Source: Candidatus Omnitrophota bacterium
Lineage (GTDB): Bacteria > Omnitrophota > Gorgyraeia > Gygaellales > Profunditerraquicolaceae
Length of the DNA stretch: 64,000 nt
Direction of reading: 5' to 3'
Assembly: GCA_041662125.1 (NCBI GenBank)
Contig: JBAZTA010000002.1
Location: 76,154 to 140,153, forward strand
In this document: piece by piece, positions 1-64,000 of the stretch
Numbering within the stretch: the first letter of the stretch is position 1
How the letters are laid out: each line of letters opens with the position of its first letter
Notes under the pieces: generated by a model
Told to the model about the DNA's origin: nothing
Databases searched by the model: none
What the model saw: only the letters and a program-made list of their open reading frames with translations
Made by a program: the position numbers and the translations under genes

Positions 1-1
1 C

Positions 2-3000
2 AAGCAAGTTTTGAGTATGGATAGTCAGTATGGTGATTGGGGTTTGTTTTCTTCCCGCATCAAACCGGCAACGCAGAAAATAGAACAATTCTTCGCGTCA
101 TCGCCGCTGGTATCATTAAAAGTCAGAGTTTTTGGTTTAACTGCCGCATTGCTCTGTCTTCCCGCGTTCGTGTTTGCCAGGACTTTTGAAGATGACTATT
201 ATTACCTTGAGGCTTTCCGTAATGTATTCCCTGTGATCTTGGGATTCGTTCAACAGCATTATTTCTTTATCGTCCTTGCCTCAGGGATTGCCTACGCGTA
301 TTTTGTCATATATAAACGCTGGGCAAAAAGCAGAAATAAAGAATTTACCGGGAAAGAACTTGAAGCGATGGCGGATACCGGCCTTAAAGCGGAAAATAGG
401 ACAATACAAGAAACTCTCGCTCCTTTATTGCGCAATTGTGAAAACGTTTTAAATTCCCAACGTATGACCGATGAAAGCGATCTTGATGGTATCTTAAATC
501 CGGCATTTCAAATCAATCAAATAACGCCCTTCTTTGTGAATATGGACAGGCCAGCCAGAGAAGCAACGGCAAAAATCCACGGTTCAATGGGAGAGTCATC
601 CAGGAAAGTCGCGCATAAAATTTACCGCATGCTGCGAAAAGGAATGGTTTCTCCTGATTTAAGGAGGAGCGTTTTTGTTAAATGCGATGAGATAATCCGT
701 ATTGCCCGGCATTCTTTAATATACAGTTACGGTATGCACGAGGGTAGTAATTGCCAGAAAGTGTCAGGATATATCCGTCCGCCGAATAGTTTTTGGGAAA
801 TAACCGCGATCCTTTCAGCGCCGCGCACGCTCTTTGGCCTTACCAGGGAAGGCTGGGTCAGTAGAAAGAAATATAATAAATTGGTCGTTGAGAAGCTCCT
901 GCCTTTGGGGAACACATTGGTTCCTGGTTTATACGATGAGAGCTTGATCAAGGAAAAATTAGAGCGGTACCTTAAATATATTTTCTCAGGGTGGAAGAAA
1001 TCAGAACTTGGCATTGAGATATGGTGGGGGCTTTTTAGCATGTTGCGCAGGTTGTCTACTACCATGTCATTTGCCTGGCTTGTGTATTTAATGATGCAGT
1101 CTCACCCCGCGCAGCTTGATTTATTCAGTTTTTGGAAACCGATCATGATCGCGTTATCGCCTATTTTATTGACTTGGGCAGTCTATCTCATTGCTATTAA
1201 ACTTGATATTTATTACCTATCACGATTGAAACGGTTAGATATATTAGAGCGGAAATTAAAGTCGCTTTCTGGTCAGGAATTCTTGTCCGAAGATCTGCTT
1301 CAAGGAGAGATGCTTTGTGAAGGTTATCGCCGGCTGAATAATGCCTTAGATATTGAGATCAATGGGGTAGAGCCGTCAGCGGACATTCTTTTTATTATGA
1401 CGGGAGATAATCAGGCAAATGCGCAGCGCTTGAGCCGTCATCTTGATGGATCAAAAGGAGTTCTGTGGAGAAAAGACGTTCCGGTCTTTATCGTCTCAAA
1501 TAAAGGCAGGGGCAACGGAATGTGTTTCTTAAAAACGCTGGAGCATCTTGATTTACATGCTCCCGCAGAACAATTCCTGGAAGCGTTGATGCAGGATGAA
1601 GATGCAGTATTATTGAATCCAGATTCTGGAGAGCACGGTTACCGTCATTTACGCGGAAAGAAAACCGGGGATTTAGGTGTATTCGCGTTGATCGCCGACA
1701 ATAAAGACCAGGAGTCAATGCTCAAAGAGCTTCCTTTAAAGGCTTTTGGAGGATTAACCGGCAGTATTAAAACTTTTGAATTACAGTTTTTAAATGGCTA
1801 TATTGCCTTGCGCGGGCTCAAAGAGGCAAAGAAAGAAAACCCTGGTGACAAGGATGTTTTTAACGGCGGCCTGGCGGTTTTTTGCGCGGATAGGATATAT
1901 ATCGGCCCCTTGGATTACTCAGGAGAAATTACCTTAGGCGGGGCGCTAACTTCTTATATCCAAATGAAAGTCCAGGAATTAGGCTTGTTTTTAGTTCACG
2001 GCGTTGGGGATATTGTTAAATACTTCGTGAAATTCTCTCACGATAAATTAGGCAACTACGTTGTGCGTGAAGCGGTGGGGTATATGTATGAGCTGGAGAA
2101 CCTTAAGAAACAGCAGATGCTTGCTTTTACGGGGAGCATTCTTATCGGTTTTAGAAACCCTGAAAAGATAAATACGTTGGTCAGGCTGCAGCGTGAATTA
2201 CAGAAATTTGTGATCATCCCGTATCTGCAGAAAAAACGTGTTATTCCGGAAATCAGGCTGCAGCAGGATATTTTAGTGCCGTTGATAATGACGTATCATG
2301 AGGAAGATATTTTTACCTATTTGTCCGCCCGAAAGAACCGTTTCCTGCCAATGAAACATAGAAAGTTTTACGAAAAGTGGTTTACTCATATCGAATTATA
2401 CTTTAAAACAAAGGCTCCGCTTGCTTTCCAGGTAAGCGCTCCTTATCCGAAGACTTCGGTGTACATTAAGAATACTCCTGATGAAATAAAGAATACTATT
2501 TTAAAAGATCTGCTTTTAGAGGAACAATCGTTGTATTTTCGCCAGGAAGCAGCCTCATATGAACAATTGCGGCGTTTGAATGATTGTGCCCTCGATAAAG
2601 CAGCAGCGGCAAGCCCGATGGATGTAAAAGAAATTTCTTTGGATGCCCGCAACCAAAAGATGCTTAATAAGCTCTGTGATGTCTGGATAACAGCAGTGAG
2701 AGGTTTTAAAGAAGGCCTGGAATCCAAGGCCTTAGTGGATCAATCTGAATATGATGATTTCTCCGCTTATATGAAATCAAGCGCTCAGACGATCAGTTCG
2801 TTCAGGTATGAGAATCCTAATATTGCCATGAGGGTTATCTTTCATACATTTTCCTGCGGTGATCCCTATCCGGAAGTTGATTTAGGGACGGCGTTTCAAA
2901 GCTTATCCCTTATCATTAAATTCGGCGTGAAAGAATCTCGCGATTTAGTTAAACCTTTGGAAGACCTGATAGGGATCATCGAAATCTTAAGGGGTACTAT

Positions 3001-6000
3001 TTATCAAACTAAAATACCGGTAGTTGCGCTTGCTCTTGATGGGATCCCGTCCTTATTTATACGTAAAGATGCTTTATTTAAGAATAAATCATCGTCAGCA
3101 ATATCGGTTCTTTACGCGCAAAAAGATATTTATGATTTAGTAGGTTCGTTTAAATGTTTAAATAGTATCATTGCCGGGGGCGGCGGTGATACCAAAGGGG
3201 TGATTGGCAATGTCTTTCCTTTAAAGGCGGCTTTTTCGATCCCTCAAGCTGCCGATTCCTATATATATTTCCCTAATGTGAAATATATGCTTGAGCATAT
3301 CTTCTTTGGGCCTGCTCCGACAAAATATTTCAAGTCTTTAATTGACGGTAAATTACAGTTGTTGAGCAACTGGAGAGATTCGAAATTTATTTTTGAGATC
3401 GGCCCTGAACTTACTCTTTCAGTGCCTTTGAAGAAGCGCAGGAATAAACCGGGTTATGTTGAGGTCAAGGGCCAGCCTGTTTTCGTAAACAGCCAATGGG
3501 GCGAAGGAAAAGTCGTGCGTACGTTGTCAAAAGACAATATACAGCTTTTACTGATGGATATATTGCCGGATTGGTATACGCTTGCTGACGATGCATCGAG
3601 AGTGTTTGATAAAGATTCATTAATTATTATAGGCGATATGGGGGGCGATATCCTTGCCCGTTACCCCGGCCCTATAGAGGATCATAAACATGCAGAGCGG
3701 TTTATGATCTCTGGGGTCACTGACCTCTGCCGCCTTCTCTTGGGCGCTGAATTGCAGCGGCGAGGATATACCGTTTTTGTCGCGATCTCTGCATTAGGCG
3801 GTGATTGTGAACTCAAGCGGACCGTTTCGATCTATCTTACTGAGCTTATGGAACTGGGATTTGTCAGGGCGTTGATCGATAATGTCGCGTATTACCGTAA
3901 CCATGACAGCCTTTTGCAGCGGATCAGAAAATTAGCTATTCCGGGTGAGGTCTCTCCGAATTTCTTCGAACGTATTTCAGCTTTCGCTAAAGGAGAACAG
4001 CCCTATTATGCCAAAGGTATTTCTCCGGAGAATTTATGTTTATGCGAGCCAGACCGCAGGATCAGATGTAAACCGATGCGGGGAGGATTAGATATGGAAG
4101 AAGCCCTTCCGGGCCTCTATCCTTATACGATCCTAATATATCCTTTAGATCTCATAAGTTTTATTGAAGATAAAGAATTAACCGGAAAAAGGTTAGGTTG
4201 GTGGGCTATCAATGATTACCTTGCGAACACCTTAGGATATGTGACGGAAGTGTATGGTTCAAAGATCAACGTTGAGACCGGTTCTTTGCATCGTATATTC
4301 GAAATTTATACTGCAAAGGGTAAAATAAAAGATAATGGGCAGGAGCTTCTGGCAATGGTGCTCAGCCAGGATTTCGGGATTAAGATCAGGCTTGCCGTTG
4401 CCATGGCGTTAGGCAGGAAGTTTAATAAAGTTACCGGCCCGGAGATAATAAAATTGCTTTATACCGAAGAATCAAATCCCTATGTCGTCAGTCAGATCGC
4501 TGAAGTCCTTGGAGTTATTCGTTATCGGCCGGCCCTGGCGCTTTTAGAAGCTTTGAAACGAAAGCCTAAGTCGTTCGGCGTTTGGCCATTCTTTCCGGGC
4601 AGTTTTTATCAGCATGCCGTTTCTACGATCAAAGAAAAAGCAAAAGTAGCGCTTGAGCTTATAGAAAAGGACGCCGCTTCTGCCGCATCGCCGGTCGTCT
4701 GCGGTGATTTCGGCAGCGTGTTGACGCAAAAGCAAATAGTGTCTCTTTTAGCGTCAAATGTGTTTGTTAATAAGAATCTTTTGAGAGTTTCAAACGTAAA
4801 AGTGGTTAAAATATATTCTCAAGCAAAAACTGCTCCCGAAGAGTTGGAATCCCAGTGCCCTGTTTTGGTCAACAGCGTGGCAAATGTTGTTTTATCGGTT
4901 TTGCCGTATCTATCTAAAAACCAGTTTGATCTCAATCAAATAAGAGCAAATGAGCATGCGGCCTTCCTCATGTTTGATGCTTTAGAGCAGTTTTTCCAGC
5001 AACACCTTCATTATTCAGGGATAGTTACTATTGGGGAAAAGCAGCGTTACGGCGTTCCGGGTTTAGTAGCCGCGGGTAAAAAGTTCGGAAGAGGGCCGGT
5101 AAAGGTCGAAATTGCTACGGATGTGATTGAAAGTTCTCAAAATATCACTGAACATAGCAAGAAAAACGCCTCTAATATGGCGACAGTTTTGGGAATAGGG
5201 GCAAAAGGCGATTTTATCGGCCTACCGGATGAATTGTATCTCAATAAAATAGCCGTTGGCAGCGCGGCGGCAGGGAAAGGTTTTTCGCCTCATTTAAACC
5301 AATCGGTTCGGGAAACGCTTGAAGCGTTATCTGCTGCTTTAGGAAAAAGCATTCATGAATTACGTGTCGCTCTTTTATTGCGGGACAGGCATGAAGAGTT
5401 AATCCATGAATTGATCGACGCAGGTATCAGTGTGGAGACAGAGGATCTGGCGGTTATGAAACAGGAAATTGCGCAAAAAGGAATATATAAAAACGGGAAT
5501 ATATATTTACTCACCCGAGGTGATTTTCTGCCTTTTGTCGGCCTTTACGCGGATACGTTAGATTGTATTTTAGGTGTTGGAAAGCCGACGGAAGGAGAGA
5601 TTACCTTTCATGTTACGCAGATGCTGGGCGGTCAGATGTGCTACCGCTTGGCCAGTTATGATGCTTTAAAGAATGGGGAGAATGATATTGTGCTCATCCG
5701 GGATGAGAATAATTTTAGTGAAAGAGAGATCGGTGTATTGCGCAATAGCGCTTTAACGGGCATGAGCAAGGATGCATTAAAGAAAAAGGCATACAGTGAG
5801 ATTTCTACCCATCCGCGGCTTCGTGATGCCGGGATCGCTATAGCATTCGTAAAAGATAATTATTGGGATAGAGATATTAAGGGCATTAAGGTCGATCTTG
5901 AAACGGGGGAGGTAACGGTCGATGTTTTTTGGGCAGGAGTTTCAGGGGATGCCAAGATCTTTAGGATAACATATGAATCTATGATTTCAGGAATTAAGGA

Positions 6001-60000: not shown

Positions 60001-63000
60001 GGTAGTAACGCTGGCTCAAGATTATCTTAAGAATAGAAAAATAGAACTGGAACAGCTCAAAGAGATCCAGTTTTCTTATGCCCTTTTAGATTGGTTTAAG
60101 GCTGCGCAAATCCTATCTCTTCGCAAAGGTGAGTTTGTTTCTCTGGCAGAGCGGGGGGATCTGGCGCTGGTTCTGCACCAGGTAAAGGTGCGCGTTATAG
60201 CTGCCTCATTACCGCGGCATCCGTGCGCATCATCCGCGCTTAAACAAAAGATAACTCCTGCGAAAGTATCTACGTTGTTTATTGTTGCTATCCTGCTTAC
60301 CGTAGTTAATGCCGTTGCAGTTGTCGTTGCCGCTCTCTTTGGAAGCGAGATGACCATTTATCTGGCATCATTGGTATCGAACATCATTATTGCTCCTTTT
60401 GCGGAAGAGATTTTATTCAGAAGAGTTATATTTAAAGGTTTATTGGTTGATCGGTATAAGGTCAGTACCGGGAAAAGCATTTTTATAAGCGCGGCTCTTT
60501 TCGCGGCGTATCATTTAATTATCCCGTTTTTTGCCGGAATCAGGTTTATACCTATTAAGCAATTTTTGTCCGGGGTCGTATATGCGTCTGTGTATGTTAG
60601 GACACGATCGTTACTGGCTATTATTATTCTTCATGCTGTCAGTAATATAGTTACCGAGACAGCTGTTTTGTTCGGATTTATCAATCAAATGCCTTTTTAT
60701 GCTACTGCCGTAATGTTGATCGCAAGCCTGATTTTATTCCCCCGTAGGCCTGTTAGAAAAGCTTTTTCGAGCGGTGATGAAAAAGAGAAACTCAAAGAAA
60801 AGAAAGGCAAAGTTCTTCAGGAGAAAAAAGGCGCCGCGGCAGAAGGCCGCAAAAAAGGTAAAAAGAATGCTGCTTCTCAGAAAAAATCCAGCTCAAGCGC
60901 GCTTGGGGAAACGAATAACGAAAATCTGACTTTTGAATGGGGCAAAGACCGAATAGGGCAGTATTATTGGGACGCAGGATGTATCTCTATTTATGCTACG
61001 GAACAATTATTTGTGCTTAAACTTTTTGAGAATCCTTTGACACTGCGTTTTACGTTATTGATCGATAAAGCCAAAAAAGAGACTTTGATCTTATACGGCC
61101 CGCAAATTCCATTATTCTTCTGGGAAAGAGATAGTGAGGAGCGCCAGCAGCGTTATCAGCATAGGGATGAACCGTCTCTGGCAGTTAAATTCTTTCCAAA
61201 ATACCGGGAATTGCAGATCAGGGTTAATGAAGAGGTTTTCCAAGATTTATTGAGTCAGAATTTCCCGCTTTCAGGAACCTTTCCGGTAACTATGGAGAAC
61301 GGACTGCATTGGAGATTTGTGGAACACTTTACCCCGCTATTTTCTGTCCCTCCCGGGCATAGTAATAGGATCCATATTACTGTTGCGGGTATTGTAAGGG
61401 TATATTTGGAACAAAATGCCGATACCCAAGCAATTAAAAATATCCCGGAAGTATTGCGGCAACAATATATGTATAATTTTAATAGCTTGATAGAGCTGCT
61501 TGGTTTGCTGGTGGGGTATCCTGTTAAATACCTCAAGCGATACTCGGGGCTTTCAGCTTGCGGCGCATTGCATGAGTCTGGCGATTCCTTTGTTGAAGTT
61601 CTCGAAGGTCTTTTTGACGATTTTTTAAGGATTATTCCGGTAACCTATGATGAACATAAGAAGCGGCTTGTTTACAATGTTGCCTATCCTTTAGAGGGGA
61701 ATATTCTTCTTACTAAAACTCAAATTACGGACAGTATGATGAATTATCCTGTACCTTACGGAAAAAAGGTCGCGGTTTTTGAGATGTCAGATGGCGATCA
61801 TTTAGCTTTTGCGGGAAACTTTGTCAGCTCCCTTCAGGAAGAAAATGAGGTTAGGATTTTTACCAGTGGACAGCTTCCTTTAGAGCAGGTGACAGGAGAT
61901 TATGAACCTGATGTTATTCTGGTTCCGTATTGCCCGGATGCCAGAAGGCTGGTACGTCAGTATTCCTCTGTTAGGCCGCGTGAGTTGATGGCGTTCTATT
62001 ATGCTTCCCTGGAATTACCTCTTGAGTTTAATCTCGTCTTTTCTTTTGGTGAAGAAACCGCAGGAAAAGTTGTGGAAGCTGTTGGCGCGCATAAGTCACA
62101 GCAGGAACGCAGAGATTACAAAAGTTTTACCCGGTTTATCATGCAATATACGGGCGCTTTAGCCGGTTACTACGGTTTCACGCAGAAAAAAGATGCTTAT
62201 GCTCACGCCTTTAGTGTTACTCGCATAGAAAAAGGAAAAGTTTTGCCGGTTGATCTTTCAAAACGGTATGCGCTGGCATTTGAAAAAGAAAAACCGCATG
62301 CTGGGTTTACTCCTGTTAGGATAAATAATAATACTTATGTAAGAGCTTCTCCTCCTCATCCTGATGATATAGAAATCGCCGTAGGGGGTTTGATGGCGCA
62401 GCTTGCTCAAAAAGGGATAGAGGTCACAAACTTGATCTTTAGCAGCGGTGAGCGCGGCGTAGTCTTGAGTGAGGCGCAGGAGAAAAAAGGTTTAACCGGT
62501 GCCGAGATCCGCCGTGAAGAATTATGTAATGCCACAAAAATCTTAGCTCCCGGCGGAATGGTGAAGAACATTCATTTGGATTATGACTATACCTACGCAC
62601 GAGATCCGGAGGGGACACAAGAACAGTTGTATGCACTGGAAAAGGAATTATTAAAACAGCGTTCTTCCGGTAGAAATATCCCAGAAGTGGTTTTATTTAT
62701 TCCTCATCCTCGTGACGATAATAAAACCCATAGAATATTTGCCCGGCTTTTAGAGCAGGTGTGGGGCCGGTTATCTCAAGAGCATACTATTACTGTTACG
62801 GTCATTTATTACTTGGCGCCATCAGCCGGGAAGTATAACACTTTTTTCCCGACGACATATAATGTTTTGCCGCAGAGCGCTGATAATGTTCAGATGTTGA
62901 AAAAGGTTAAGTCCGTTGAGCCGTTTAAGCGGGCAATTTCTATTATTATCCCCTCGCGGACAGGCCTTTCAGCCCAGCAAGGCCCGCACCAGATGGAATT

Positions 63001-64000
63001 CGGCGAGTTTGGGGAGAGATTTTTCCGGGAGAGTTATAAAGACGGGAAATTAGTAGTTCAGAGCATAGCGCAGCCCAAGAGAAGCGCCTCTCCGCGGGGG
63101 GACGTACTGACCCTTCCCCTGTTAGCTGGATTAATCGCTCCTTTCGATTATAAACAATTTTACCTTTACAATGAGGCATTAAATAATCATCTGTCTTCTT
63201 TCTTTTTTACCTATGAGTGGCTTATTAAAGCAGGGGTATTTTCCTTAATTTTTATTCCTGCGGGATACGTTATTTATAGGTACATTTCGTATATAAAGAA
63301 AATATCATTGAAAAAACTTCCGCCGTATTTTTATCAGTCTTTAAAGACAGCAATCTTAAATAAATTCATGCTCTGTAATCTTGCCGTGTATGGCATTGGT
63401 TTGTACCTTGCTGATCAAATTGTGGGAGCCCCAGAGTATGTTATAAAAATCTGCCCTCTCAGCAATGCTTTATTATTCATATACATAGCAATGTCAATAT
63501 TAATTTACAAAATATCTTTGGAGTCAATTTTTAGTATAGATGCAAAGATTAATCAGTATTTAATTGAATTAAAGAGAATCAGGAAAACAAAAGATAATGA
63601 TAGAAGAAATAAAAATGTCCCCATTTCTCCTTCTGTTTCAAGTTCTCCTATAGAAGAGATACCTGCGGTATTGCGCAATGTAGCGAAAATATTGCAACCG
63701 CTCTTAAAACCTGATGAAGATTTCTATTTTAACGGAGGCATCGTCAGGGATTTGCTGTTAGGGAAGTTGTTGGATATTCGCGATATAGATATTATTATTG
63801 TTACCCAGGCCAATAGCCGCGTACAAGAGATAATAGATGAATTAAAGGCTCAGGGGTTGGAGAGAGACGGTTGTATCATGATGGATGGGGTTATTTTAGA
63901 TATAGGCAGTAATGAAGATGGTAAAGGTAATATTCACAGGCATGGTGATGGGGTTATCGCTTGTTTTACCCGTATGCTCGGTAGGCCCGTGTTGGTTAAA
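2..64000 (+). CDS. Internal fragment of a giant multi-domain ORF, at least 21,333 codons, 5' and 3' ends outside the window. Mosaic of enzyme-like, regulator-like and transmembrane modules.
   Basis: Codon phase starting at nt 2 shows no stop in any of about 30 regions I translated by hand (e.g. 2-1900, 9002-9060, 15062-15240, 17222-17760, 26162-26440, 28982-29090, 29702-30780, 39782-40324, 42002-42060, 46202-46320, 57902-58300, 58502-59100, 62342-62460, 63962-64000). The ORF track lists + strand ORFs only in the other two phases and none in this phase, although an in-frame ATG sits at nt 17. That is expected only if no in-frame stop exists in the window. Codon-like composition is uniform, and diverged paralogous modules stay in the same frame. 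Confidence 0.85.
95..109 (+). repeat. First copy of the recurring inter-module linker A-S-S-P-L (gcg tca tcg ccg ctg).
   Basis: The same [S/A]SP[LIMV] peptide, frequently encoded by the identical nucleotide string tcgccgctg, recurs in frame at about 25 further positions (listed in findings). Confidence 0.6.
110..331 (+). other. Cluster of hydrophobic, transmembrane-like helices.
   Basis: Translation VRVFGLTAALLCLPAFVFA and VFPVILGFVQQHYFFIVLASGIAYAYFVIY has the length and hydrophobicity of TM helices. More TM-like helices lie at about 1030-1220 (MSFAWLVYLMMQ, IMIALSPILLTWAVYLIAI). Confidence 0.4.
4322..4570 (+). other. HEAT/PBS-lyase-like repeat block.
   Basis: GIKIRLAVAMALGRKFNKVTGPEIIKLLYTEESNPYVVSQIAEVLGVIRYRPALALLEALK fits the V-R-x-A-A-x-x-A-L-G consensus spacing of HEAT-like repeats. 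Confidence 0.3.
7682..7813 (+). other. Helix-turn-helix-like motif, one of about three in 7400-8170.
   Basis: TLSAVAQELKMSRGNLQKFLRR resembles a Fis/XRE-type HTH. Nearby are LAVVLGKDPSSVSRGL and KKLAQRFGVAEITILRFF. Confidence 0.3.
9692..10300 (+). other. HEAT/ARM-like alpha-solenoid repeats.
   Basis: Repeating units such as DPRMRAYAYRIIGAIG, LRMLLLIGQQEG and PQAVVLCLIKSYTDDPSMIPVIDKIL recur with a 30-40 aa period. Confidence 0.35.
11027..11515 (+). repeat. Copy 1 of a conserved domain of unknown function (signature GH-x-VI-x-G ... FFFK ... EF ... TGE-x-I-x-VH ... IGG-x-RP ... MES-x-LDE).
   Basis: GHIVILGQVPQSGELKIGRKWARLDASLYGLSNYLLEMNNGIPVRMFFFKTHTALEFLPAVNNKTGGIEVVHMGQIF...LGDLSIGGGRPHSD...GLVWRLTSLESDLDRAYLRIM aligns with copies at 47465 and 49259. 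Confidence 0.5.
14696..14902 (+). other. ACT-like small regulatory domain upstream of the HD domain.
   Basis: LMRFTIPHQPAQLLRITRLLRERGINIQSFMTPTFSQYHQNMRFIMQLGIP has a beta-alpha-beta ACT-like pattern. Sequence-weak. Confidence 0.25.
15062..15469 (+). other. RelA/SpoT-type HD domain, like a (p)ppGpp hydrolase or Mesh1-type small alarmone hydrolase.
   Basis: MMHPLDVAIIAANQFGIRDEGLLEMIILAALLHDTIEDGDIS...FGDDIYAIVNLLTK...IAYLRQL...IARLIKIADRIHNLQTLAG matches the SpoT HD signatures HP-x-x-VA, AALLHD-x-IEDT and LIKLADRLHNMRTL. Confidence 0.75.
15842..16162 (+). other. Second HD-type metal-dependent phosphohydrolase domain.
   Basis: HTLSHGDDVSDLAGYLAQHLGL...RIASQLHDVEKIHNREV...IEFHHRPQM has the H...HD...H...D spacing typical of HD domains. 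Confidence 0.4.
16742..17182 (+). other. Site-2 protease, peptidase M50B (SpoIVFB-like) intramembrane zinc-metalloprotease module.
   Basis: Hydrophobic helix FTIPLTILFVIPLTLIFIIASILHEYVHLLMAKIFGLETGKVRLF carries HExxH in a TM segment followed by G-x-x-V. Downstream FIYLAGPAMDLFLGAVFLF matches the AGP-x-x-N-x-x-L motif, and NSLNPKYSTDEGLKSDGY matches N-x-x-P-x-x-x-x-DG. Confidence 0.55.
17213..17227 (+). repeat. Linker S-S-S-P-L (agc tcc tcg ccg ctg).
   Basis: In-frame copy of the recurring linker, with the octamer tcgccgct conserved. Confidence 0.6.
17228..17878 (+). other. Minimal protein-kinase-like fold module (eukaryotic-like, RIO or Kdo-kinase-like).
   Basis: NLVVRISK matches the beta-3 Lys. 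EFQRFQQLARLG matches the alpha-C Glu. MLVERVQGNSL is a hinge. YISDFKPANIMF matches the catalytic loop HRDLKPANIL. VICDAM sits in the DFG position. The module is delimited by SSSPL linkers at both ends (17213-17227, 17879-17893). Confidence 0.5.
17981..19228 (+). repeat. PHP (polymerase and histidinol phosphatase) phosphoesterase module, paralog copy 1.
   Basis: VDLHTHTVESDGYSNPAAAILEAFERGMSGLAITDHNTF...IPGLEITTYFEGVVVHLLVYLPGYY...VAHTGSKLAIAHPNE carries the PHP His/Asp motifs. It aligns along its full length with 38111-39385 (about 40-50% identity by eye). Confidence 0.7.
19502..19900 (+). other. Class-I SAM-methyltransferase-like fold (weak).
   Basis: PLYVLDWGAGNLRAAVRLGKML...IIDSAPNLF...LLSPHGVIVFDVYG resembles motif I hh-D-x-G-x-G and a post-motif-II strand. 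Confidence 0.3.
20171..20500 (+). other. TM helix cluster with a second HExxH motif (HEWLH), a possible membrane metalloprotease-like module.
   Basis: IVSIFALMLILQV, LAIFITGVILTLLNFMSGLGANILPF and YLLVWVLNKYF are TM-like. LLIHEWLHAYQIILIYHAG holds an HExxH at 20466-20480. Confidence 0.3.
20732..20743 (+). repeat. Linker S-S-P-L (tcc tcg ccg ctg).
   Basis: In-frame recurring linker. Translation is TNPVSSPLTVTDGF. Confidence 0.6.
20744..21601 (+). other. Alpha/beta-hydrolase-fold-like module (weak).
   Basis: VVISVHGLGCV (HG-x-G start), MVESYGAAVFVEW (nucleophile-elbow-like) and YVTGGDHYAAMTNPAVV (C-terminal His region) appear in the order expected for an alpha/beta hydrolase. Confidence 0.3.
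21611..21619 (+). repeat. Linker (A)-S-P-L (tcg ccg ctg).
   Basis: Translation is SAASPLALQD. Confidence 0.6.
23462..23473 (+). repeat. Linker S-S-P-L (tcc tcg ccg cta).
   Basis: Translation is EHASSPLEKV. Confidence 0.6.
24200..24799 (+). other. Nucleotidyltransferase head domain of the poly(A) polymerase or tRNA CCA-adding type, copy 1.
   Basis: EIIIAGGPVRDLLLGLRFNRGDNEAGIKDVDVIL matches the PolyA_pol head signature GG-x-VRD-x-LLG ... D-x-D. Confidence 0.65.
25085..25093 (+). repeat. Linker (SSSAA)-S-P-L (tcg ccg ctg).
   Basis: Translation is VSSSAASPLVLR. Confidence 0.6.
25196..25798 (+). repeat. Unknown-function module A (YYVNAG ... F-x-IHVVVTN ... GGFNGIMCNVGG ... GGWLQVDA).
   Basis: Aligns with module A-prime at 27173-27733: YYVNAGQEKDIEFLINTIAKYMG versus YYINAGHQPEITFLIESIADYMK, FEIHVVVTNVDPRG versus FKVHVVVTNIVPRR, GGFNGIMCNVGGD versus GGFNGILCNVGGA, GGWLQVDA versus DGWLQVDA. 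Both end in an [S/A]SPL linker. Confidence 0.55.
25802..25810 (+). repeat. Linker (A)-S-P-L (tcg ccg ctg).
   Basis: Translation is IGASPLAQRR. Confidence 0.6.
25811..26566 (+). other. Subtilase (peptidase S8)-like module with the catalytic Ser replaced by Cys.
   Basis: IIILDDFVID is an Asp-box-like stretch and VPHGILIEN is a His-box-like stretch. FVMCAGNGRQNSPGGY matches the Asn/oxyanion region AAGN. NVIPVAAAEISKTGYTKAYYSCFGPDVMFCADGSDSQNAQGTCIAAARISL parallels subtilisin SVIAVGA...SFSS-G-x-x-DV-x-APG...GTSMAAPHVAG, with GTC in place of GTS. Confidence 0.45.
27173..27733 (+). repeat. Module A-prime, paralog of 25196-25798.
   Basis: See module A. About 45% identity by eye. Followed by the SSSPL linker at 27734-27748. 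Confidence 0.55.
27749..29044 (+). other. Class-I SAM-dependent methyltransferase module, PrmA-like (ribosomal protein L11 MTase type).
   Basis: AERFRGARVLDLGCGRGISSLFAALLGAKTVVGVDNDP matches motif I plus the acidic post-I residue. LPFDIVMANIG matches the PrmA F-D-h-h-h-A-N-I motif. Core at 28190-28500. Confidence 0.7.
29045..29056 (+). repeat. Linker A-S-P-L (gcc tcg ccg ttg).
   Basis: Translation is KISAASPLASSIELLIFDLT. Confidence 0.6.
29057..29755 (+). other. HAD-superfamily hydrolase-like module (beta-phosphoglucomutase or phosphatase subfamily).
   Basis: IELLIFDLTQTL is a motif-I position reading D-L-T rather than D-x-D. YRLALATNNG matches motif II (S/T). KGKPDPGIFYELCKLQGVSPERAVSIGNSRQHDLEAAAQIGM matches motifs III-IV (K ... 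G-D-S-x-x-D, here GNS-x-x-D). Confidence 0.55.
29750..29764 (+). repeat. Linker S-A-S-P-L.
   Basis: agc gcc tcg ccg cta, in frame. Confidence 0.6.
30062..30745 (+). other. Sigma-70-family module (regions 2.1-2.4 and region 4) embedded in the giant ORF.
   Basis: AAREVLIVTNVPMVIYRVIRQY...DDLIQVGIYGRGDRVGGLARAVERFEPERGIRFISFALQWIDAVLLQAVRE parallels RpoD region 2 (LVEANLRLVVSIAKKY...[41 protein letters not shown]). LQLEISERDKDILSRLLDAEKQSYIANHYRIKPQRVQQIFKRLTKMLKE parallels region 4 (...[20 protein letters not shown]). Confidence 0.6.
30761..30775 (+). repeat. Linker S-A-S-P-L.
   Basis: agt gcc tcc ccg cta, in frame. Confidence 0.55.
31622..31792 (+). other. Phosphoribosyltransferase (type I PRTase, ComF/GntX-like) module with an atypical PRPP-binding loop.
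   Basis: VTDVDLRGKSVLLLDDAAAERNVHLACMERILRAGATQVFVVRIG follows the PRT pattern (hydrophobic strand, DD, loop, helix, GA..V) but reads DDAAAERN where the canonical motif is DD-x-x-TGGT. Confidence 0.35.
32195..32455 (+). other. Class-I methyltransferase-like module (PrmA-like core).
   Basis: MHVIDCGSGRAELSLAALRLNSSVDSIEIDS is motif I. REIAIVSNIGSWG matches the PrmA-like x-h-h-V-S/A-N-I motif. Bounded by TSPL (31817-31828) and SSPI (about 32672). Confidence 0.45.
35882..36136 (+). other. ACT domain-like module.
   Basis: FELSILAEDKPGLIALVISALSDSGISMFRLAPPQKESGLLSYEFIFQP...EADISKALSEIEGITYEVRLVP matches the ACT pattern (strand, G-x-h helix, strand; D/E-D-x-P-G-h-h). Confidence 0.45.
38111..39385 (+). 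repeat. PHP phosphoesterase module, paralog copy 2.
   Basis: GQIDLHTHTLLSDAYATPSAMVLKAYEEGLAGIAITDHDMF...IPGLEITTLFEGVEVHLLVYLPGY...VAQAGAKLAIAHPSE. Co-linear with copy 1 from the N-terminal SAARAIIEEVLG helix to the C-terminal tail. Ends at the ASPM linker. Confidence 0.7.
39782..40324 (+). other. TIM-barrel phosphate-binding module, ThiG (thiazole synthase)-like or IGPS-like.
   Basis: IQLIGECGIGEPEHVRQVLKMGCNGVLVNNAITQSADPIAAAVAFRDAV resembles the ThiG C-terminus (VDAGVGT-x-SDAA-x-AMELGCDAVLMNTAIA-x-A-x-DPV-x-MA-x-AF). Confidence 0.35.
41882..42040 (+). other. Transmembrane helix cluster.
   Basis: GGISTCLLMFGLFLSIFYAVAAYFESYNVLFVPLFIVWACRFYW. Two hydrophobic helices. Confidence 0.4.
44072..44596 (+). 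other. Phosphoribulokinase/uridine-kinase family P-loop kinase module (intact Walker A).
   Basis: PLYIVSVGGGAGVGKTTFVDRLKRAL is a Walker A of PRK/URK type. VQVIILDGLHV parallels the IIIEGLH motif. PIFMDTAVDVLKAWRFQQEW parallels FVDTD-x-DVRL-x-RRI-x-RD. Confidence 0.65.
45350..45700 (+). other. Possible GNAT acetyltransferase-like fold (weak).
   Basis: IYNIDIFPNMQREGIAKVILLKLFASCIEAERHLTIYDAGCADRIYNLVKYYF resembles GNAT motif A (Q/R-x-x-G-x-A ... h-x-h-x-V ... N ... A). Confidence 0.25.
47465..49258 (+). repeat. Tandem repeat unit 1 (about 1.79 kb, 598 aa): unknown domain copy 2 plus a charged helical tail.
   Basis: GHAVIAGTMPQGGSLSLGGYLFKFTQYGGVDYELEVEAGLLKRIFFMNDYSLVEFLSVLDRCTGEIIDLHCGKI...CQSMESEFDETFSLI...WINFGEEYSYRY...GELLAVFEKWSDK aligns residue-for-residue with unit 2, which begins 1794 nt downstream. 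Confidence 0.6.
49259..51100 (+). repeat. Tandem repeat unit 2: unknown domain copy 3 plus a coiled-coil-like tail.
   Basis: GHVVIRGVLKGNFALRIGEYSFGFRGYADSAYELEVDNGILRQIFFFKDHTLFEFFPIIDNHTGEVIDVHRGTI...CTSMESGLDEPFILI...WMDFGADCGYGF...GELIEVFERWSEN. About 35% identity to unit 1 by eye. Confidence 0.6.
50402..51250 (+). other. Charged coiled-coil-like segment.
   Basis: Runs such as LETEKIRVSGEKTIARRADTIRALIVEVNSLRQKIRRMDEKTAKLLEEDL and KEIRRKRLLSSREKELVRNLREDLRQANALASLEQL show heptad-like R/E/K/L periodicity. The - strand ORF 50725-51117 is its antisense shadow. Confidence 0.4.
52082..52399 (+). other. Pol-beta-superfamily nucleotidyltransferase module of GlnD/GlnE type.
   Basis: PFSVWMVGSMGYLGLARKGISDVNLLVLTE matches the h-G-S-x-G-R-G-E-L ... 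S-D-h-D-L-h-h-L catalytic motif of GlnD/GlnE-type NTases. Confidence 0.45.
54260..54730 (+). other. Uridine-kinase/PRK-like module with a degenerate P-loop (candidate pseudokinase).
   Basis: ADIKIFLECDEIERLQRIKDY and DADYVVDT parallel the uridine kinase C-terminal motifs. The Walker-A position reads AIIRITSRPGADEAEII, with no G-K-T/S. Confidence 0.3.
56228..56401 (+). other. Possible GHKL-ATPase N-box-like segment (weak).
   Basis: NYGEIHFALRDLLHNALVHGNHFKLSLPVFF resembles the E-x-x-x-N-A-x-x-H-G N-box of RsbW/SpoIIAB/histidine-kinase ATPases. Confidence 0.2.
57854..58330 (+). other. CheR-type protein-glutamate O-methyltransferase-like module.
   Basis: GEPLRMLCLGCEEGADAYMLAMELLESGW...VEITGVGINRFAIEIAQAGHF...LSEETVNKYF...YVINSRLKAMVSFQTANFLE...GGFDFILLNQMIDCF parallels CheR (LRIWSAACSTGEEPYSLAI-x-L ... 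I-x-ATDID ... A-x-x-G-x-Y ... YF ... V-x-F ... N-L-L ... FD-x-I-F-C-R-N-V-h-I-Y-F). Confidence 0.75.
58502..59134 (+). other. CoaB (phosphopantothenate-cysteine ligase; C-terminal Dfp/CoaBC domain) module, motifs intact.
   Basis: [54 protein letters not shown]...VIRVDVVTALEMKEAV...ISAAAVADYRP...LHNNPDIL...VVGFAAET...KNMDFICANRV...GFRSENNKVVII is co-linear with E. coli Dfp CoaB ([47 protein letters not shown] ... CAAVADYR ... KNPDIV ... VVGFAAET ... KNLDLICAND ... GFNSDNN). Confidence 0.85.
59282..59662 (+). repeat. Degenerate second CoaB-like half-domain, tandem to the intact one.
   Basis: KTILISAGSTEESIDGVRIVSRAVKFDLPYAIAAIARISGAKVVLISGPTHTPPPEGVRFIQVATAQEM keeps the CoaB fold signature, but the SSGK and AAVADY motifs are lost (SRAVKFDL, INLARPPF). 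Confidence 0.5.
60266..60760 (+). other. CPBP-family (CAAX protease/bacteriocin-processing, Abi) intramembrane metalloprotease module.
   Basis: Four hydrophobic helices carry the three CPBP motifs in order: APFAEEILFRRVIF (EExxxR), ISAALFAAYH (FxxxH) and IIILHAVSNIV (HxxxN). Confidence 0.8.
60761..60907 (+). repeat. Lys/Gly/Ala-rich low-complexity basic segment.
   Basis: SGDEKEKLKEKKGKVLQEKKGAAAEGRKKGKKNAASQKKSSSSALGE, immediately after the last CPBP helix. Confidence 0.5.
62342..62800 (+). other. PIG-L/LmbE-family deacetylase module (GlcNAc-deacetylase fold, like BshB/MshB).
   Basis: RASPPHPDDIEIAVGGLMAQLAQKGIEVTNLIFSSGERG matches the A-H-P-D-D-E-x-x-G-x-G-G-T-h-A ... H-x-V signature. Downstream IPHPRDDNKTHRI supplies the H-x-x-D-H-like metal ligands. 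Confidence 0.75.
63200..63499 (+). other. Transmembrane helix cluster.
   Basis: AGVFSLIFIPAGYVIYRYI, MLCNLAVYGIGLYLADQIV and NALLFIYIAMSILIYKI are TM-like. Confidence 0.35.
63701..64000 (+). other. Nucleotidyltransferase head domain (poly(A) polymerase or CCA type), copy 2, truncated by the window end.
   Basis: DEDFYFNGGIVRDLLLGKLLDIRDIDIIIVT matches GG-x-VRDLLLG ... D-I-D. Paralogous to 24272-24430. Confidence 0.6.

Follow-up and report, generated by a model that had tools for sequence, protein, structure and literature searches.

A stop-free 64-kb window is an internal piece of a giant multi-enzyme gene, very probably of the published Omnitrophota class

The window, by which we mean the whole stretch of 64,000 nucleotides that was analysed, carries a single open reading frame on its forward strand, along which diverse enzyme and regulatory domains alternate with long unannotated stretches and with occasional hydrophobic helix clusters, of which two belong to intramembrane proteases (Table 1). 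A six-frame scan found no TAA, TAG or TGA in the 21,333 codons of the frame starting at nt 2, whereas each of the other five frames holds 848-1,855 stops and its longest open stretch does not exceed 678 nt. From the base composition of the window, a random codon would be a stop with p = 0.064, and a stop-free run of this length would have a probability of about 10^-613. The initial annotation had read one stop-free frame from nt 2 to 64000 (at least 21,333 codons), with an in-frame ATG at nt 17 and both gene ends beyond the window, and had proposed the six-frame scan as a check; the scan bears this reading out, the ATG is present, and the frame is open at both ends.

When the window is divided into 21 bins of 3 kb, codon-position GC (GC1/GC2/GC3 = 0.51/0.36/0.42) is the same throughout, and purine bias is likewise uniform. 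Searches with Rfam (gathering thresholds), ARAGORN and Tandem Repeats Finder gave no match in the window, and counts of promoter-like and terminator-like motifs over nt 1-60000 equal the shuffle expectation, in agreement with the earlier statement that the window has no terminator or RNA gene. Shine-Dalgarno-like motifs precede an in-frame start codon at 44 sites across the ORF, a raw count that lends no positive support to internal initiation. Comparison with synonymous shuffles (z = +1.2 and -1.9) shows no "ambush" excess of out-of-frame stops, a feature that might protect against frameshifts. The remaining ORFs of at least 110 aa are all antisense and at most 218 aa long; they look like antisense noise and were dismissed.

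Table 1. Features of the giant open reading frame, with positions in the window (nt), strand, residues of the translated frame and evidence.
Feature	Position	Strand	Residues (aa)	Evidence
Internal fragment of giant gene, 21,333 stop-free codons	2..64000	+		Six-frame scan, codon-position GC, dN/dS
Hydrophobic cluster A, 2-3 candidate transmembrane helices	122..313	+	41-104	Kyte-Doolittle, hydropathy only
Hydrophobic segment B, candidate transmembrane helix	1115..1198	+	372-399	Hydropathy
Window-only cassette 1, with HEAT-like and GlpX-like domains	3107..8488	+	1036-2829	tblastn, blastp against relative
GlpX-like class II fructose-1,6-bisphosphatase domain	4973..5656	+	1658-1885	Pfam PF03320, 83 bits
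Recurring beta-rich ~390-aa domain, copy 1	10829..12001	+	3610-4000	Internal paralogy, alignments
RelA/SpoT-type HD hydrolase (small-alarmone-hydrolase-like)	15032..15472	+	5011-5157	Pfam HD_4, 46 bits
M50 (site-2 protease)-like segment, 3 hydrophobic helices	16754..17098	+	5585-5699	Pfam below cutoffs
Window-only cassette 3, 4,988 aa	16805..31768	+	5602-10589	Comparison with relative
PHP module copy 1, RNase RNM / pAp-phosphatase type	18017..19201	+	6006-6400	Pfam PHP
Hydrophobic cluster E, ~2 candidate transmembrane helices	20168..20392	+	6723-6797	Hydropathy
PrmA-like SAM-dependent methyltransferase	28151..28447	+	9384-9482	Pfam PrmA, 54 bits
HAD-superfamily hydrolase domain	29069..29623	+	9690-9874	Pfam HAD_2, Hydrolase; NCBIfam
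Sigma-70-family-like domain (regions 2-4)	30116..30763	+	10039-10254	NCBIfam RpoH, 45.6 bits
PHP module copy 2	38153..39322	+	12718-13107	Pfam, NCBIfam, PDB, internal paralogy
ThiG-like (thiazole or thiosugar synthase) TIM-barrel	39737..40291	+	13246-13430	Pfam ThiG, 60 bits
Hydrophobic cluster F	41921..42016	+	13974-14005	Hydropathy
Uridine kinase / PRK-family P-loop kinase	44081..44647	+	14694-14882	Pfam PRK, 41 bits
Recurring ~390-aa domain, copy 2	47264..48466	+	15755-16155	Internal paralogy, alignments
Recurring ~390-aa domain, copy 3	49034..50203	+	16345-16734	Internal paralogy, alignments
CheR-like SAM-dependent methyltransferase	57866..58351	+	19289-19450	Pfam CheR 69 bits, NCBIfam CheR 35 bits
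Phosphopantothenate-cysteine ligase (CoaB), no CoaC half	58472..59158	+	19491-19719	Pfam DFP, 261 bits
CPBP/Rce1-like glutamic intramembrane protease, 5-6 hydrophobic helices	60236..60736	+	20079-20245	Pfam Rce1-like, 58 bits
PIG-L/LmbE-type N-deacetylase	62354..62761	+	20785-20920	Pfam PIG-L, 49.5 bits
Last 289 codons, GC 0.35, hydrophobic cluster H, weak PolyA_pol head nucleotidyltransferase match	63134..64000	+		

About 12% of the protein matches known domains, and about 82% of its residues have no assigned function. The matches, which were confirmed against PDB sequences, fall into about 15 distinct Pfam/NCBIfam families with at most two copies each (PHP), and the polypeptide is non-repetitive, with no tandem repeats and six internal paralogous matches. 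Catalytic motifs are intact in the HD, PHP, M50, methyltransferase, P-loop kinase, CoaB, CPBP and PIG-L domains, while the M50, HEAT, sigma and GlpX (NCBIfam) scores lie below curated cutoffs.

The CoaB domain is a phosphopantothenate-cysteine ligase. It passes the equivalog-level cutoff of NCBIfam coaBC (246 bits against 219.7), covering only model positions 170-391, matches E. coli CoaB (1U7U, E 9e-42) and keeps the motifs ITNFSSGKQG, AAAVADYRP and GFAAET. It lies between the CheR-like methyltransferase and the CPBP/Rce1-like protease, which matches NCBIfam CPBP families and retains EEILFR, FAAYH and HAVSN; the PIG-L deacetylase further downstream carries a PHPDD motif and a weak NCBIfam BshB match. 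The other protease candidate, the M50-like segment, scores 21 bits with PF02163 and 19 bits with PF13398, each under its cutoff, and has HEYVH inside a hydrophobic helix.

Further domains are found upstream. The SpoT-type HD domain matches NCBIfam spoT_relA (61 bits) and Rel, Mesh1 and SAH chains in the PDB (E 5e-11), with its H...HDxxED...ADRIHN motifs intact. PHP copy 1 matches NCBIfam RNaseRnm and PDB 7ug9, possesses intact DLHTHT..SDG and ITDH motifs, and is 44% identical to copy 2. The sigma-like domain scores 38.3 bits with TIGR02937 (cutoff 42.9) and weakly with Pfam Sigma70_r2, and matches RpoH and RpoS chains in the PDB at E 3e-8. The uridine kinase-like domain (NCBIfam udk, 50 bits) carries the P-loop GGAGVGKT, and the PrmA-like methyltransferase (NCBIfam, 62 bits; PDB 1ufk) has VLDLGCGRG as motif I. 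The ThiG-like domain matches PDB 4n6e and 2htm at E 1e-7 with its KLE lysine motif present. The catalytic motifs of the HAD domain are altered, motifs I (DLTQT) and IV (GNSRQHD) being non-canonical. The GlpX-like domain, supported by PDB GlpX chains (E 2e-12) and by NCBIfam glpX at 59 bits, under cutoff, has a partly divergent metal-site motif; a borderline HEAT_2 match lies in the same cassette.

A recurring domain of about 390 aa, present in three copies, has no Pfam match and no PDB sequence match. It is carried by 69 of 1.84e9 representative proteins, and the named carriers are Candidatus Omnitrophota. AF2 modelled it with a pLDDT of 89 from 17 sequences (53 from 3 sequences), and the model has no fold match among solved structures. 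In other carriers the domain is followed by a sigma-70 region; this arrangement was not seen beside the three copies in the window, where the one weak match is the known sigma-like domain at aa ~10200. Being rare, confidently modelled and without a match among solved structures, the domain is a concrete structural target.

Hydropathy places hydrophobic clusters in the M50 and CPBP membrane-protease domains and at about five further sites. The count of hydrophobic 19-mers (Kyte-Doolittle) is not above that of shuffled sequence and is in fact lower; credibility is therefore limited to the clusters within the M50 and CPBP domains and to a handful elsewhere, and those used here either lie in membrane-protein domains or are very hydrophobic.

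Among 185,579 species genomes (GTDB), the only relative is JBAZKL010000001.1 (Ga0265297_10000008), a contig of 838,345 nt from the MAG Candidatus Omnitrophota SO_2017_LW4_142, which was also recovered independently from JGI metagenomes. To judge from its isolate name, its probable source is the landfill-leachate dataset that had yielded giant genes to West-Roberts et al. 2023 (bioRxiv 10.1101/2023.11.21.568195). The window carries no marker genes, and its link to Omnitrophota, a lineage that the initial annotation had named as an example, has strong but indirect support from this MAG and from the named carriers of the recurring domain. Searched against a database of 5.8 billion proteins, aa 1-5000 gave no match at E<=1e-10, and giant proteins seem to be absent from that database. 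The embedded domains also appear to be too divergent for its word filter.

The relative is collinear with the window in 12 blocks of 48-77% amino-acid identity (~75%), which cover at least 9,300 window residues. The two stretches of it that were read (39.7 and 39.2 kb, 78.8 kb in total, spanning 91 kb) are stop-free, and its ORF extends at least 19 kb upstream of its match to window aa 32 and amounts to at least 91.3 kb, provided that the 12.5 kb between the two stretches, at 749,159-761,636 of the contig, is open too. Since the ORF of the relative would thus span 91 kb or more, a length of at least 30,000 aa is probable for the full gene here. An orthologue at about 75% identity also allows a direct test of selection. 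NG86 dN/dS is 0.08-0.24 (dS 0.65-1.4) in the 12 shared blocks, some 10,000 codons that are mostly unannotated, which indicates purifying selection in every shared block, unannotated sequence included. The earlier proposal of one real giant gene is upheld by these values together with the uniform coding periodicity and the collinear, stop-free relative. We conclude that the window is real coding sequence and an uninterrupted piece of a giant multi-enzyme gene.

Five cassettes lack an equivalent in the relative. Together they amount to 7,946 aa, or 37% of the window, and include the GlpX, PHP-1, PrmA, HAD and sigma-like domains; their borders lie at nt 3107, 8488, 9482, 10411, 16805, 31768, 53975, 55669 and 63134. 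At the site of cassette 1 the relative has 17 codons instead, and this cassette found nothing at E<=1e-5 in the 5.8-billion-protein database; at the site of cassette 3 it has an unrelated segment of 2,419 aa, and the last 289 codons have no counterpart either. The cassettes found only in the relative carry iPGM, YcaO, YkuD, NusG-N, CoaE, HATPase_c, NAD(P)HX dehydratase, GT2 and others, the GT2 lying downstream of the region common with the window. There is no clear signal of foreign composition in the window-only cassettes (GC3 0.38-0.44, against 0.36-0.45 in shared blocks). Because so much of the window lies in segments without a counterpart in a relative of 75% identity, the gene may evolve via in-frame gain, loss and replacement of entire cassettes, and the locus would show such genes diverging through in-frame replacement of multi-kilobase cassettes.

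Taken together, the window is very probably an internal 21,333-codon fragment of a real Omnitrophota giant gene of the published multi-enzyme (Archaeovorin-like) class. The gene would be translated as one single chain, and, with topology judged by hydropathy, the sparse transmembrane clusters would anchor this chain in the cell membrane. Most soluble domains would face the cytoplasm, given their dependence on CTP, ATP, SAM or nucleotide substrates, and the protein would serve as an array of metabolic and regulatory functions tethered to the membrane.

Metagenome assemblies are sometimes chimeric, the contig of the window itself was recovered from neither of the two collections scanned (species genomes and JGI metagenomes), and the frame might in principle be a product of chimeric assembly, repeat collapse or consensus polishing, or a non-coding open frame. 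Against this stand the vanishing chance probability, the absence of tandem repeats and near absence of internal repeats, the uniform coding signal, and a collinear stop-free orthologue with dN/dS of about 0.15 in a second assembly, made independently from a different sample. Chimeric assembly, collapsed repeats and recoding are thus effectively excluded, and the artefact reading, to which we give hardly any weight, is effectively refuted. The commonest very long bacterial genes, by general knowledge and the account of non-Omnitrophota giants in West-Roberts et al. 2023, are NRPS/PKS megasynthases and repeat-built adhesins or RTX-like surface proteins (Chlorobium, Planctomycetota, Firmicutes). 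In the window, however, Pfam and NCBIfam detect no condensation, adenylation, KS, AT or carrier-protein domains, there are no Ig-like, cadherin, haemagglutinin or RTX repeats and no tandem repeats, and the closest relative is an Omnitrophota; domain content rules out both types, and we give them practically no probability.

Two further alternatives concern the fate of the protein. The chain could be a polyprotein that is made in one piece and then cut into many enzymes by the embedded M50/CPBP or by an N-terminal C39/S8 peptidase, in which case the giant gene would serve the co-expression of a fixed set of small proteins; gene identity would be the same, the difference being post-translational only. 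The two protease domains within the ORF have intact catalytic motifs, the domains are discrete with long linkers between them, and they resemble normal stand-alone enzymes (e.g., CoaB at equivalog level). M50 and CPBP proteases, however, cleave within or beside membranes rather than in soluble linkers. Neither cleavage sites nor repeated linker motifs were found in the window, and purifying selection acts on the unannotated linkers just as it does on the domains, which would be unexpected if the linkers were disposable spacers. We regard a polyprotein as unlikely, even with the possible C39/S8 cleavage raised by West-Roberts et al. 2023. It is still less probable that most of the chain is exported as a secreted or surface effector for prey or host attachment and cell-wall digestion, as proposed for Archaeovorins. 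CoaB uses CTP and phosphopantothenate, Udk ATP, the methyltransferases SAM and SpoT-type HD (p)ppGpp, and a sigma factor acts with RNA polymerase, so that the recognised domains require intracellular substrates. The window is also without any glycoside hydrolase, lytic transglycosylase, lectin/CBM, dockerin, TSP3 or SecA_DEAD domain (Pfam). On the other side, the relative's own cassettes carry YkuD (L,D-transpeptidase) and GT2, and GlcNAc-containing polymers are possible substrates of the PIG-L/LmbE deacetylase. Export is also the published hypothesis for the class, most detected Archaeovorin domains being predicted extracellular (West-Roberts et al. 2023). A multi-enzyme giant of 147 kaa was predicted with a signal peptide and transmembrane helices, and DeepTMHMM put its multi-enzyme content outside the cell, which speaks against a cytoplasmic reading in general (Nielsen & Lui 2026, bioRxiv 10.64898/2026.06.07.730766).

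A bolder reading can be formulated, which we hold to be improbable. The giant ORF would be an evolvable in-frame cassette array that is the organism's sole source of certain core functions (CoaB-type ligase, uridine kinase, ThiG-like, GlpX-like, SpoT-type hydrolase, even a sigma-like factor) or delivers such activities into a host cell. Entire cassettes would be swapped between strains with the frame never broken, and the rare 390-aa domain, which matches no known fold, would be the structural signature of the system.

Few polypeptides predicted anywhere in biology are as long as the giant proteins of Omnitrophota, and this locus provides a clean, well-supported example. Since its domains mostly need cytoplasmic substrates and keep their motifs intact, it bears on two views of such proteins, as tools of predation outside the cell or as enzyme arrays tethered to the membrane inside it. 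West-Roberts et al. 2023 reported 46 Omnitrophota genes longer than 90 kb. Nielsen & Lui 2026 counted 3,650 proteins that reach or exceed 10 kaa, the longest having 147,155 aa, with transmembrane helices and/or a signal peptide in 94% of their catalogue. A gene of at least 21 kaa in Omnitrophota is thus an expected member of an already catalogued class. Nielsen & Lui 2026 also defined a multi-enzyme class and assigned a TM-only, cytoplasmic-face topology to 46% of long proteins. With their Class 1, the "multi-enzyme metabolic cluster" of at least 10,000 aa in a single ORF, the window's 21,333 codons share many Pfam families with none dominating by copy number, the Module 1 content (methyltransferase, HAD and HD domains), sparse candidate transmembrane segments, mostly Pfam-dark sequence, the lack of nucleotide tandem repeats and, by indirect evidence, the phylum Omnitrophota. 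However, the window, itself a fragment, has no sugar-metabolism Module 2 (starch synthase, GT1, PGM), and CoaB, ThiG, Udk, the SpoT-type HD, sigma-70-like, M50 and CPBP domains are not among the families highlighted for the class.

The dockerin and tandem-repeat scaffolds differ from the window, in which Pfam detects no dockerin, TSP3, WD, NHL or TPR repeats. The Archaeovorin type, represented by the Velamenicoccus archaeovorus giant protein, comprises genes longer than 90,000 bp, for proteins of 30,000 aa or more, with an N-terminal C39 or S8 peptidase close to a signal peptide, a domain set of glycosyltransferases, glycoside hydrolases, methyltransferases, peptidases, NUDIX and HEAT, and, in most, a divergent SecA DEAD / preprotein-binding domain (West-Roberts et al. 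2023). These authors, who applied structure prediction and fold searches to such proteins, also describe an Rhs-like antiparallel beta-helix. The window lacks glycosyltransferase (GT5/GT1 among them), glycoside hydrolase, NUDIX, TPR and SLT domains, and SecA_DEAD had no match either in the window (E<=0.01) or in the scanned relative-only segments (E<=0.001). Both are giant ORFs, that of the window being linked to Omnitrophota by indirect evidence, with transmembrane segments (candidates here) and long unannotated stretches, and both possess methyltransferases (PrmA-like and CheR-like here), peptidases (M50 and CPBP here), a HEAT-like repeat (a borderline HEAT_2 match here) and an FBPase-type domain. 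The ORF of JBAZKL010000001.1, finally, shares with the window the recurring 390-aa domain and the CheR-CoaB-CPBP-PIG-L stretch.

The initial annotation had proposed that one stop-free reading frame crosses the whole window and belongs to a giant gene, and the frame was borne out exactly by a programmatic six-frame scan, in which the forward frame from nt 2 contained no TAA, TAG, or TGA in 21,333 codons and the remaining five frames held 848-1,855 stops each, with a longest open run of 678 nt. At the base composition of the window, a random codon has a stop probability of 0.064, which puts the likelihood of an open run this long at about 10^-613. The in-frame ATG reported at nt 17 was found, and the proposed lack of RNA genes and terminators also held, as Rfam (gathering thresholds), ARAGORN, and Tandem Repeats Finder gave no match in the 64 kb and promoter- or terminator-like motifs showed no excess over shuffled sequence (nt 1-60000). 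Further ORFs of at least 110 aa were antisense only, reaching at most 218 aa and rich in Ser, Leu, and Phe. Compared with synonymous-codon shuffles, out-of-frame stops showed no excess (z = +1.2 and -1.9; window 2-64000), and no 'ambush' signature that would guard against frameshifting is seen in this very long gene.

Coding phase and style run without a break along the window, with uniform composition over all 21 consecutive 3-kb bins (GC1 0.51, GC2 0.36, and GC3 0.42, with small standard deviations; codon position 1 is 60% purine, alike in all bins). Searching 185,579 species-representative genomes in one scan returned a single relative, the 838,345-nt contig JBAZKL010000001.1 of a Candidatus Omnitrophota MAG, which was recovered independently under its JGI name, Ga0265297_10000008, in a JGI metagenome scan whose query was the opposite window end. 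Each of its two fetched pieces (39,662 and 39,185 nt, separated by 12.5 kb) is one stop-free frame end to end, and the window matches them in 12 strictly collinear blocks of 48-77% amino-acid identity. Across these blocks (~10,000 codons, most of them without a recognisable domain), Nei-Gojobori dN/dS was 0.08-0.24 at dS 0.65-1.4. Composition, the collinear open relative, and dN/dS, three lines of evidence independent of one another, together indicate that purifying selection on the protein maintains the frame in two independently assembled lineages, supporting the real giant gene of the initial annotation and effectively excluding chimeric assembly, repeat collapse, or a non-coding open frame as the source of the ORF. 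As the frame has no stop codons that could be reassigned, recoding does not bear on the result. Upstream of the position that matches window aa 32, the ORF of the relative reaches back 19 kb or more, and past the last shared block it goes on for 10 kb or more. Its span is 91.3 kb, provided that the unseen 12.5 kb is open as well; therefore, the gene sampled by the window is probably at least 30,000 aa long.

The encoded protein has an ordinary amino-acid composition and is non-repetitive, with only six internal matches by self-BLAST. Library-recognised domains, each different in kind, cover ~12% of residues, and the ORF of the relative holds further housekeeping-type domains at high scores.

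Features of the window and of the relative (window domains in chain order; locations in nt of the window unless marked aa or assigned to L001 or L002, the two pieces of the relative)
Feature	Location	Remark
HEAT repeat		borderline
GlpX-type fructose-bisphosphatase domain	in cassette aa 1036-2829
RelA/SpoT-type HD hydrolase
M50 site-2-protease-like segment
PHP domain, RNase RNM / pAp-phosphatase type		two copies
PrmA-like methyltransferase
HAD hydrolase	29069-29623
Sigma-70-family-like domain, regions 2-4	30116-30763	best matches RpoH, RpoS
ThiG-like barrel
Uridine-kinase-type P-loop kinase
CheR-like methyltransferase
CoaB phosphopantothenate-cysteine ligase domain	58472-59158	246 bits
CPBP/Rce1 intramembrane protease
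PIG-L/LmbE deacetylase
Nucleotidyltransferase head		weak match
Duplicated PHP-containing module, ~390 aa	18017-19201; 38153-39322	copies 44% identical
Duplicated unannotated segment, 161 aa	25181-25663; 27155-27637	copies 45% identical
Hydrophobic helix clusters (hydropathy)	aa 41-104; 372-399; 5585-5697 (M50); 6723-6797; 13974-14005; 20092-20245 (CPBP); 21067-21173
Window-only cassettes	3107-8488; 9482-10411; 16805-31768; 53975-55669; 63134-64000
Housekeeping-type domains of the relative	L001 2-19054, 29663-36919; L002 29186-39184	iPGM (cofactor-independent phosphoglycerate mutase), 233 bits; YcaO, 169 bits; NAD(P)HX dehydratase, 152 bits; YkuD L,D-transpeptidase; NusG N-terminal domain

On reading the sequence, signature motifs proved intact in most recognised domains, including the HD domain (H..HDxxED..ADRIHN), both PHP copies (DLHTHT..SDG and ITDH), the M50 segment (HEYVH within a hydrophobic helix), the methyltransferase (motif I), the kinase (P-loop), CoaB (ITNFSSGKQG, AAAVADYRP, and GFAAET), CPBP (EEILFR, FAAYH, and HAVSN), and the deacetylase (PHPDD). 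The exception is the HAD domain, which has DLTQT instead of DxDxT as motif I and GNSRQHD as motif IV, so that the canonical aspartates are replaced; it may be inactive or have altered chemistry. With its score, the CoaB domain passes the equivalog cutoff of the NCBIfam CoaBC model, yet only the CoaB half is covered, and there is no CoaC (flavoprotein) half. It aligns to E. coli CoaB (1U7U) with an E value of 9e-42; what we take to be the Asn210 position is retained, and the presumed Arg206 position is aligned with Glu.

The sigma-70-family-like domain sits deep within the giant ORF. Distinct from the PHP module, a rare domain of ~390 aa occurs in three copies in the window, and its confidently predicted structure model has no match among solved structures. 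Other carriers of this domain bear the annotation 'sigma-70 family', and in them it is followed by a sigma-like region, an arrangement not repeated in the window, where no sigma-like region was found next to the three copies.

Compared with the relative, blocks of 60% identity or more account for 9,337 aa of the window, a weaker syntenic zone for 1,076 aa, the part opposite the unseen gap for 2,943 aa, and the five cassettes without counterpart for 7,946 aa (37%). The cassette carrying the GlpX domain stands where the relative has 17 codons, while that of aa 5602-10589, which holds PHP-1, PrmA, HAD, and the sigma-like domain, lies opposite an unrelated 2,419-aa segment with a different methyltransferase; at some of the same places, the relative has different enzyme cassettes. 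Its own cassettes hold iPGM, YcaO, YkuD, the NusG N-terminal domain, and NAD(P)HX dehydratase, together with CoaE, HATPase_c, a cytidylyltransferase, APH, and GT2. No foreign composition marks the window-only cassettes, and a database of 5.8 billion proteins contained no relative of the largest-scoring one. The last 289 codons (63134-64000), which lack a counterpart in the relative, with a markedly lower GC of 0.35 versus 0.43 for the whole window, a hydrophobic cluster, and the weak nucleotidyltransferase match, may be the beginning of another cassette. In a more distant sediment-metagenome fragment, ADZX01000494.1, the modules come in the order CPBP then CoaB, the reverse of that in the window. 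The cassettes and this reversal therefore point to divergence in which modules of several kilobases are inserted, lost, replaced, and shuffled in frame, and the frame was preserved in every cassette replacement, never broken through module exchange. As well, positions 1-16714 of ADZX01000494.1 contain three long ORFs in three frames, overlapping by ~50-100 nt and with giant-protein-type content (M50, Response_reg, DFP, NUDIX, and AAA), which probably represent one giant gene that an old assembly split through frameshift errors.

One selected ORF encodes many catalytically plausible predicted domains and sparse membrane segments. The chain would be synthesised as one polypeptide and, at the bacterial elongation rate of ~15 aa/s, the window portion alone would take more than 20 min to translate. 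Hydrophobic clusters would hold it in the membrane, with most soluble domains presumably on the cytoplasmic side; the topology is tentative, since hydropathy is its sole basis and the hydrophobic helix count overall shows no excess over shuffled sequence. The cytoplasmic orientation is suggested by what the domain families depend on, because CoaB requires CTP and phosphopantothenate, the kinase ATP, the methyltransferases SAM, and the sigma-like domain RNA polymerase, while SpoT-type HD acts on (p)ppGpp. That the window belongs to a real Omnitrophota-type multi-enzyme giant gene is very likely; given that identity, a cytoplasmic-face array is a possibility approaching an even chance.

Alternatively, the chain might be cut after translation into separate enzymes, which is plausible because two proteases are embedded in it, although the linkers are conserved as strongly as the domains. 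Export as a surface effector, the Archaeovorin hypothesis, has literature support for other giants, including a multi-enzyme one (10.1101/2023.11.21.568195; 10.64898/2026.06.07.730766), but is weakened here by the absence of CAZyme, lectin, dockerin, and SecA domains in 21,333 aa. The cytoplasmic-array model agrees with hypothesis (iii) of Nielsen & Lui 2026 (10.64898/2026.06.07.730766), inner-membrane-anchored proteins with cytoplasmic domains, which was offered for the TM-only 46% of their catalogue.

In 1,873 Omnitrophota genomes, West-Roberts et al. 2023 (10.1101/2023.11.21.568195) counted 46 non-redundant genes above 90 kb, encoding up to 85,804 aa, and defined Archaeovorin- and Dockerin-type giants. 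Nielsen & Lui 2026 catalogued 3,650 proteins that reach 10 kaa or more, 348 of them 30 kaa or more and the largest 147,155 aa, with singletons making up 80% of sequence clusters. As the phenomenon is already published and catalogued at scale, the locus would be no surprise to a specialist; the sequence itself is new, as neither of the two scanned collections contained its source contig and its nearest relative is ~75% identical across only about half of its length. A dockerin or repeat-scaffold type, NRPS/PKS, and repeat adhesins were ruled out by domain content. SecA_DEAD, GT, GH, and NUDIX domains were not found in the window, a 64-kb fragment, and we therefore prefer 'Archaeovorin-like' to Archaeovorin in the strict sense. 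The Omnitrophota affiliation of the gene is indirectly but strongly supported. The value of the locus lies in clear evidence of selection on unannotated sequence, in cassette mosaicism, and in the rare 390-aa domain. In length, domain tiling, and lack of tandem repeats, the window fits the 'multi-enzyme metabolic cluster' class of Nielsen & Lui, whose members are tiled by many Pfams of which none is dominant, and its intact cofactor-dependent enzyme domains bear on the inside-versus-outside question for that class.
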